This document shows positions 47,132 to 47,674 of a stretch of DNA of 64,000 bases, piece after piece (positions within the stretch are counted from its first letter, which is position 1; each line of letters opens with the position of its first letter). The notes beneath the pieces were generated by a model. That model was not told where the DNA came from and ran no database searches. It worked only from the letters and a program-made list of their open reading frames with translations. Source of the DNA: Escherichia coli (GTDB lineage: Bacteria > Pseudomonadota > Gammaproteobacteria > Enterobacterales > Enterobacteriaceae); NCBI RefSeq assembly GCF_003018255.1, contig NZ_CP027440.1; one strand, written 5' to 3'. Made by a program: the position numbers and the translations under genes.

Positions 47132-47674
47132 GAGATCCCCATAGTTGTTGGCAGACAATGGGCAGGATTGTAGGGAATTTACAGACGTAAAAAAAGAGTA
47201 TGACGATTTTGTTAACAATTTGTGCAATCGGCAGCATCGATAAGCAGGTCAAATTCTCCCGTCATTATCACCTCTGCTACTTAAATTTCCCGCTTTATAA
47301 GCCGATTAAATGATGAATAAACGCCCCTGTTAATGAATATCTGGCATGTTGTACTAAAAATCGATGTTTTGCTTTGACAATCCCCTGGTGTTTTGCGAAA
47401 ACATTCGAGGAAGAAAAAAACAGTATTCTTATATGCGCATAACCATGCATGTAAATACCATGTTTACCGTGCTAGTGAAATCTACGTATGGCGTGGACAG
47501 ACGCCATTCGTGATGTCGATAGCTGCCACAAGGCAACGGTCTTCTCACCGTAGACCCAGGCATTGCGCGCCGTGAATCTTCATGATTTCGGTCTATCGTG
47601 ACGGGTAGCGACTCTGAACAGTGATGTTTCAGGGTCAGACAGGAGTAGGGAAGGAATACAGAGAGACAATAATA

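Follow-up and report, generated by a model that had tools for sequence, protein, structure and literature searches.

What does the long gap between trxB and lrp in Escherichia coli hold besides the promoters of the two genes that flank it? The window analysed here, a 64,000-nucleotide (nt) stretch of contig NZ_CP027440.1 (assembly GCF_003018255.1), carries this gap at positions 47132-47674. It is bounded by the ATG of trxB, which is read on the reverse strand and whose start codon ends at 47131, and by the ATG of lrp at 47675; its length is thus exactly 543 bp. An initial annotation, made from the sequence alone, had described an AT-rich region that holds the promoters of both genes in divergent orientation, along with a long leader of lrp and autoregulatory Lrp sites, and had recognised neither a discrete small RNA (sRNA) nor a convincing small open reading frame (ORF). 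From the evidence presented below, we hold with high confidence that the region is the characterised divergent trxB/lrp control region of E. coli, comprising the two promoters, the Lrp sites and a long leader targeted by sRNAs, with no hidden gene. It is already known, and as control regions in E. coli go it is one of the better characterised. With up to a third of E. coli genes under the control of Lrp, its control region is important; yet three decades of work have gone into dissecting it, and the window contributes no new element.

Divergent promoters and the conserved control region

Positions 47000-47800 were 100% identical to E. coli strain Rb-50, and with the same query the trxB-lrp region was found in 5,425 of 5,426 complete E. 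coli genomes. Alignment of 610 nt (47101-47710) with K-12 revealed one single-base indel, the 543- and 544-nt gaps included. The sole difference within the gap, which measures 544 bp in K-12, is one A in the A-run at 47414-47420, 3′ of the lrp transcription start. This run counts seven A's here and eight in K-12 (+6 to +13), and its length differs among genera too. The lrp leader is 1 nt shorter than that of K-12 because of the seven rather than eight A's. All transcript data used in this study come from K-12, and the coordinates in the window strain were mapped from there. The RefSeq annotation lists nothing between trxB and lrp in either K-12 or Rb-50.

The gap is AT-rich as claimed, with a GC content of 42.9%, while the window as a whole has 51.6%; upstream of the lrp start the value is 39.5%, and in the leader it is 46.4%. 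It is also the longest non-coding stretch outside the serW repeats: over the same 64 kb, the K-12 annotation has gaps of 494 and 425 bp next in length, the first of these measures about 170 nt less in the window, and only the clpA-serW area exceeds the gap between trxB and lrp.

Published SMRT-Cappable-seq (single-molecule real-time Cappable-seq) and Cappable-seq data placed the two divergent starts that had been presumed, at 47159 for trxB and at 47408/47409 for lrp. Features of the lrp side are given below on the plus strand, and those of trxB on the minus strand. Transcription of lrp begins at A47408 or G47409, corresponding to K-12 932327 in SMRT-Cappable-seq and to 932328 (931551 in U00096.2), the main start with a score of 95, in Cappable-seq. 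The resulting leader (47408..47674) is 267 nt long, in agreement with the 267-nt leader credited to Wang et al. 1994, whom the review PMC12152304 cites for a start that lies over 250 nt upstream of the gene. Conservation and geometry that fits the mapped start point to a core promoter at 47374..47402, with a putative −35 element TTGACA (47374-47379), a 17-nt spacer and an extended −10 element TGcGAAAAC (47394-47402). A secondary plus-strand start was listed by Cappable-seq at 47598 (931741 in U00096.2; K-12 932518) with a score of 30. It lies 77 nt upstream of the ATG, within the variable, non-conserved leader insert described below, and it lacks a convincing −10 hexamer.

The autoregulatory Lrp sites were likewise borne out. 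Wang et al. 1994 reported a DNase I footprint from −106 to −20 (limits cited from PMC6640053), which maps to 47303..47389 and overlaps the most conserved block, the conservation of 47335-47389 being 0.9-0.99. Inside the transcribed region, an ArgR operator with two ARG boxes (+29 to +65; 47436..47472) has been mapped by footprinting (PMC6640053); its sequence differs between genera in the leader alignment. H-NS, NsrR, GadE and ppGpp also regulate lrp transcription, as stated in the review PMC12152304.

On the opposite strand, trxB has a 5′ untranslated region (UTR) of 28 nt (47132..47159). Its transcript runs from 932078, the K-12 position of the start at 47159, to 931021 in the SMRT-Cappable-seq supplement (PMC6131387). 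The core promoter, read from the sequence, would occupy 47167..47196, with TACAAT (47172 to 47167) as its −10 element, the end of which is 7 nt upstream of the mapped start, and with a T-run (47196 to 47187) in the place of a −35 element. Both elements are near-invariant across the Enterobacterales loci. A scan for promoter and terminator consensus sequences misses the trxB promoter because its −35 is poor. The same scan found no canonical terminator in the gap; we regard it as uninformative here because it missed both experimentally mapped promoters.

We compared this arrangement across 80 Enterobacterales loci fetched around lrp. Among them, 77 had enough upstream sequence, and 44 Enterobacteriaceae served for the frame tests and the leader alignment. 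The trxB gene lies divergently upstream of lrp in all 77, with a gap of 429-851 bp; TTGACAAT...TTTGCGAAAACAT of the lrp promoter is present in 77/77; and the inferred lrp leader is long (164-551 nt) in every Enterobacterales locus tested. Divergent synteny, core lrp promoter and long leader are thus kept order-wide, which is new in this analysis. Within the gap, conservation falls into blocks. The first (47132-47235) holds the trxB UTR, its −10, the T-run and a palindrome, TTGTTAACAA. The second (47335-47420), near-invariant, spans Lrp sites and the core lrp promoter, and the third (47463-47547) lies in the leader. Between the third block and a last near-invariant one (47612-47674), which reaches up to the ATG, the alignment shows gaps and low conservation, a variable leader insert (47548..47609, with 47552-47610 as the variable stretch in the conservation profile) that is absent in Cedecea, Buttiauxella and similar genera. 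The conservation blocks coincide with the published sites.

Two side observations concern the distribution of the locus. Gaps of 650-850 bp and leaders of up to 551 nt occur in Edwardsiella, Hafnia, Moellerella, Serratia, Affinibrenneria and Xenorhabdus (loci L038, L056, L057, L059, L066, L069, L073, L078-L081 and L083). The query 47000-47800 also had eight matching places on E. coli RefSeq records labelled plasmid, and at least one genome carries two copies of the trxB-lrp junction.

Short reading frames in the gap

Short frames do exist in the gap, and one of them, a 21-aa ATG frame at 47488-47553, lies inside the conserved leader block. This would favour a small protein or leader peptide made from such a frame, or from the 60-aa TTG frame at 47393..47575 (plus strand). 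We tested every frame of 10 aa or more on either strand, 18 in all, against the 44 Enterobacteriaceae for frame conservation and codon-position bias. The 60-aa frame was intact in 1 of 44, with 520, 577 and 638 substitutions at the three codon positions and hence no third-position bias. It begins upstream of the lrp transcription start, and no Shine-Dalgarno (SD)-like sequence could be read upstream of it, as the initial annotation had noted. The 21-aa frame was intact in 10 of 44 (172, 167 and 136 substitutions). We rejected all 18 as genes. An excess of third-position substitutions was seen in none of them, and those that stayed intact lie, without exception, upstream of the start site, where the promoter DNA is invariant.

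Searches of Pfam and NCBIfam returned no significant match for any frame, the best scores being 14.1 and 13.6 bits against cut-offs of 23.4 and 27.7; the 14.1-bit Pfam match (cut-off 23.4) belongs to the 60-aa frame, which had no NCBIfam match. The supplement of a ribosome-profiling survey of small ORFs (Stringer et al. 2021) has no entry at 932000-932599. Among the many validated small proteins in K-12 RefSeq, one of which is the nearby yljB, none lies in the gap. With frames broken in relatives, without coding bias, family match or profiling entry, and with the conservation of the leader block explained by RNA pairing, a small protein or leader peptide is extremely improbable. We conclude that no protein is encoded in the gap, in keeping with the first reading that no small ORF is convincing.

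A structured lrp leader and an RNA 3′ end at 47510

We then considered what the conserved part of the leader might be. RNAalifold and covariation in the alignment of the 44 leaders define an 87-nt domain at 47461..47547. In it, 47466-47470 and 47536-47540 form a closing helix around SL2 (47471-47523), a long, imperfect stem-loop with GGACAG as its apical loop, and SL3 (47525-47534), a short hairpin with a variable loop; an invariant CUUCUCA tail (47541-47547) comes last. Folded alone, the domain has the same structure as its minimum free energy fold (−33.1 kcal/mol, z = −3.36). SL2 comprises 20 pairs, of which nine carry compensatory changes, and 96.5% of the cells of the alignment are paired; none of 500 shuffles reached the observed measures, and slid partners were paired in 21-41%. 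Over the whole domain, 11 of 28 pairs covary. A covariance model of the domain, R1, matched in Enterobacteriaceae only and found nothing in 31 non-Enterobacteriaceae loci; the SL2 domain is therefore not order-wide. By the same model it is absent from Serratia, Pectobacterium, Proteus, Photorhabdus and others, some of which carry GACAG-type motifs elsewhere in the leader.

The loop of SL2 displays the upstream of two published pairing sites for the R3 region of the sRNA GcvB; both sites are complementary to the R3 seed CUGUC and its flanks. Site 1, UGGACAGAC, occupies 47494..47502 in and around the apical loop. The published GACAG at −179 to −175 (Lee & Gottesman 2016, as reported in the review PMC12152304) corresponds to 47496-47500, and GTGGACAG is invariant in 44/44 sequences. 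Site 2, CAGACAGG, lies at 47636..47643, the published −39 to −33 corresponding to 47636-47642. An A in site 2 is replaced by G in Salmonella, Citrobacter and Enterobacter, a change that would keep the pairing as G-U. Later papers attribute to Lee & Gottesman 2016 that a mutation in seed or site abolishes GcvB repression and that a compensatory change restores it. Published work shows an RNase E-dependent reduction of lrp mRNA by GcvB, and MicF and DsrA pair at the lrp start codon, as described in PMC12152304. The order-wide long leader and the covariation-supported stem-loop, specific to Enterobacteriaceae, give the upstream GcvB site a structural context.

The remaining parts of the leader fit the same picture of an RNA with several binding sites. 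At its 5′ end, the purine-rich AGGAAGAAAAAAACAG (47408..47423) contains five A-R-N triplets and is conserved in Enterobacteriaceae and purine-rich order-wide. Repeats of this type, (ARN)n, are the motif for the distal face of Hfq, which makes the 5′ end a candidate Hfq site, or a candidate CsrA GGA site. GGA motifs occur at 47409-47411, 47495-47497 (the SL2 loop), 47642-47644 and 47654-47656. Further downstream, a hairpin, SL4 (47611..47635), has five pairs, two of them with compensatory changes, and is 95.9% paired; it is enclosed by the leader "enhancer" segment at −69 to −40 described in PMC12152304. SL4 and site 2 are followed by the near-invariant, purine-rich ribosome-binding region GAGUAGGGAAGGAAUACAGAGAGACAAUAAUA (47644..47674). 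In published cross-linking immunoprecipitation sequencing (CLIP-seq) data, CsrA peak_93 covers K-12 932427-932639, or 47507-47719, with a summit near 47630, about 15-45 nt upstream of the ribosome-binding region, and CsrA shifts a transcript from −318 to +45 in an electrophoretic mobility shift assay in vitro. RNAalifold also predicted a long-range helix between CUUCUC (47541-47546) and GGGAAG (47648-47653), without covariation, which we treat as conjecture.

A domain so well supported could be more than a display for GcvB, namely a cis-acting sensor such as a riboswitch, a thermosensor or a protein-binding element. The covariation, the low z value and the invariance of the single-stranded CUUCUCA at its flank agree with such a role, and PMC12152304 treats the structure of the leader as important for translation and the role of the upstream GcvB site as unexplained. 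On the other hand, an Rfam covariance-model search returned no match inside 47132-47674 at E values up to 10 (searched over 46500-48500), nor at the gathering score when the whole window was searched. The invariant bases are mostly the sRNA site and stem pairs rather than loops or junctions of a ligand pocket, and the domain occurs in one family only while the long leader is order-wide. An expression platform that covaries, either a terminator or an SD-sequestering helix, was not seen; CUUCUC:GGGAAG never varies. We consider a sensor very unlikely.

The published RNA 3′ ends added a feature that the first reading had not foreseen. The Term-seq supplements of Adams et al. 2021 list an abundant plus-strand end at K-12 932430, which is 47510 in the window, 3 nt past the upper hairpin of SL2. 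It is listed in three conditions, and in two of these it has 9747 and 9592 reads, where the lrp terminator end (933176) has 4691 and 2694; the 47510 end exceeds the terminator end there by a factor of 2-3.6. Together with the lrp start at 47408/47409, it implies a leader RNA of about 102 nt, the 5′ and 3′ ends of which come from separate data sets. This is probably one further RNA species and not an independent gene. The earlier reading, in which no discrete sRNA was identified, holds insofar as no independent gene was found, and needs to be qualified by the abundant extra end within the leader. That reading would have been refuted by transcript maps with only the two known divergent mRNAs and no additional stable RNA or translated small ORF, a description that does not fully fit the data, given the 47510 end. 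The 5′ edge of the CsrA CLIP-seq peak (932427) coincides with this end, which suggests that the RNA is truly interrupted there.

How the end arises can be judged from the bases around it. The same supplements give 932430 an intrinsic terminator score of 7.37 (threshold 3.0) and a Rho score of 0.84 (not Rho-dependent), with no annotated element. With a strong, GC-rich and conserved stem, these values would suit a premature terminator or attenuator that sets the flow of polymerase into lrp, perhaps under the influence of GcvB, CsrA or Hfq bound to the nascent leader. Against this, what comes after the stem is UUCGUGAU in E. coli and a similar, non-U-rich sequence in all relatives; none of them has a U-run, and our scan conflicts with the published score. 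The bases after the upper hairpin pair in the lower SL2 stem, which is supported by covariation. Published read coverage is also higher downstream than upstream of the end, though the upstream window includes untranscribed DNA. An attenuator is therefore improbable in our view. Processing, with exonuclease trimming back to the hairpin and possibly tied to the effect of GcvB and RNase E, is favoured over true termination because there is no U-run, because the next bases lie in the covarying lower stem, and because the terminator scan was negative.

The fragment might also act in trans, as a functional sRNA that decoys or sponges GcvB or reaches other targets and adds a feedback arm to the Lrp-GcvB loop. 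Several observations are in line with this: the abundance of the 47510 end relative to the lrp terminator end, the CsrA CLIP-seq edge at the same place, the GGACAG loop, invariant in 44/44, and the existence of SroC, a sponge that also targets GcvB R3. The predicted fold of the 102-nt fragment has two hairpins and leaves the GGACAG/GcvB site exposed. Sponges derived from 5′ UTRs have reportedly been established as a class by Adams and colleagues. The invariance of the loop is, however, already explained by cis regulation of lrp, and exonucleases are expected to come to rest at a 3′ end beside a stable hairpin, so that abundance is no proof of function. The fragment lacks a U-run for binding to the proximal face of Hfq. 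Full-text searches of the literature found no report of an sRNA derived from the lrp leader and no northern, paired-end, half-life or Hfq-binding data on the fragment, nor any on an effect in trans. We regard a trans-acting function as unlikely. In its most specific form, the proposal is that a stable sRNA of about 102 nt is cut or terminated from the lrp leader and, with its A-R-N tract and GcvB-R3 loop, titrates GcvB and perhaps CsrA; this we find unlikely. If it were true, transcription of lrp would feed back on its own repressor independently of the Lrp protein, and a second GcvB sponge would stand beside SroC, made from the leader of the target itself.

Our preferred reading, a known control region with a probably processed leader, can be put together as follows. 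A short trxB promoter and 28-nt UTR form the left edge, followed by an AT-rich spacer and by an autoregulatory region that Lrp occupies and that overlaps the strongly conserved lrp promoter. The 267-nt leader serves as a platform for post-transcriptional control by GcvB, MicF, DsrA and CsrA, with ArgR acting on the DNA. Docking of GcvB on the SL2 loop and 3′ arm may open the stem and, with RNase E, lower lrp mRNA. A product of decay or termination that ends 3 nt past the upper hairpin may then accumulate as the 102-nt leader RNA. The domain and the 47510 end raise a testable idea, either GcvB-guided processing or a leader-derived decoy RNA. For sRNA specialists, domain and fragment are a modest refinement and not a surprise.

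Some points weigh against parts of this reading. The promoter hexamers are our own, putative assignment, and the consensus scanner finds neither promoter. [quoted passage not shown] The coordinates of Wang 1994 and of Lee & Gottesman 2016 were taken second-hand from later papers. When the leader was scanned window by window for duplexes with GcvB R3, site 2 came out best (−22.0 kcal/mol) and site 1 second (−19.6), energies only about 1-2 standard deviations better than those of the best windows of shuffled leaders (−17.0 ± 2.5). A full-length RNAduplex run of the leader against GcvB was discarded, as shuffles scored equally. In a published data set, CsrA had no significant effect on lrp expression. 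The pairs of the leader domain were counted on the same sequences that yielded the structure, and the statistics therefore lean towards it. Finally, the 47510 end may stem from termination or from processing, and its link to GcvB and RNase E is putative.

The intergenic spacer, the rest of the window and known systems

Between the two promoters lies a perfect palindrome, TTGTTAACAA (47209..47218), which is kept in Enterobacteriaceae and largely across the whole order. Beside it, GATTTTGTTA is similar to the GAD box core, and a site for GadE or another factor at the palindrome is a matter of speculation. The review PMC12152304 states that GadE activates lrp. The palindrome is followed by a poorly conserved, AT-rich spacer (47236..47330). 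At 47236-47302 the smoothed conservation in Enterobacteriaceae is 0.27-0.55 and the GC content about 38-41%. Two kinds of repeats in the gap were set aside. Direct repeats are short two-copy matches, taken as chance, and the inverted repeat I2 was rejected as an mRNA structure because it lies mostly upstream of the trxB start.

Elsewhere in the window, the clpA-serW region has about 300 nt more than K-12 at 40554-40915. An Rfam match to RtT at 40605-40741 (minus strand; 45.1 bits, the gathering score being 45) adjoins a tRNA at 40968-41052, and this RtT-bearing stretch presumably represents the serW repeats of the initial annotation. The lysO-aqpZ gap (29912-30130) is about 170 nt shorter than in K-12 (914958-915349). 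The FtsK frame at 48304-52356 encodes 1350 aa, compared with 1329 aa in K-12, a difference that apparently stems from the number of repeats in the proline/glutamine-rich linker. Rfam matches above the gathering score were STnc130 at 55877-56011 (minus strand, 140 bits) and RybB at 3166-3244 (minus strand, 104 bits).

The closest known system is the lrp promoter and leader of K-12 (Wang et al. 1994; Lee & Gottesman 2016), which is the same but for one A, and all published sites map onto the window. Outside Enterobacteriaceae, the lrp leader of Erwinia amylovora (103 nt, regulated by ArcZ) is likewise a point of post-transcriptional control. It differs in content and in its sRNA, the SL2 domain being confined to Enterobacteriaceae among the loci searched.

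Among leaders of other genes, those of rpoS (targeted by DsrA, RprA and ArcZ) and phoP (targeted by GcvB R3) are similar in being long, structured 5′ UTRs that integrate Hfq-dependent sRNAs. The likeness extends to an sRNA site in a hairpin loop and, as a candidate, to an A-R-N tract for Hfq. In contrast, the known sRNAs of lrp all repress and none activates, one of their sites lies 175 nt upstream of the AUG, and covariation lends no support to an inhibitory stem that sequesters the SD.

The fragment that ends at 47510 is best compared with the sponges SroC, which acts on GcvB, and ChiZ and IspZ, described in Adams et al. 2021. Unlike them it has no U-rich 3′ tail; like them it has an abundant 3′ end within a 5′ UTR, after a stable hairpin. 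It also carries a validated pairing site for GcvB R3, the region that SroC targets as well.

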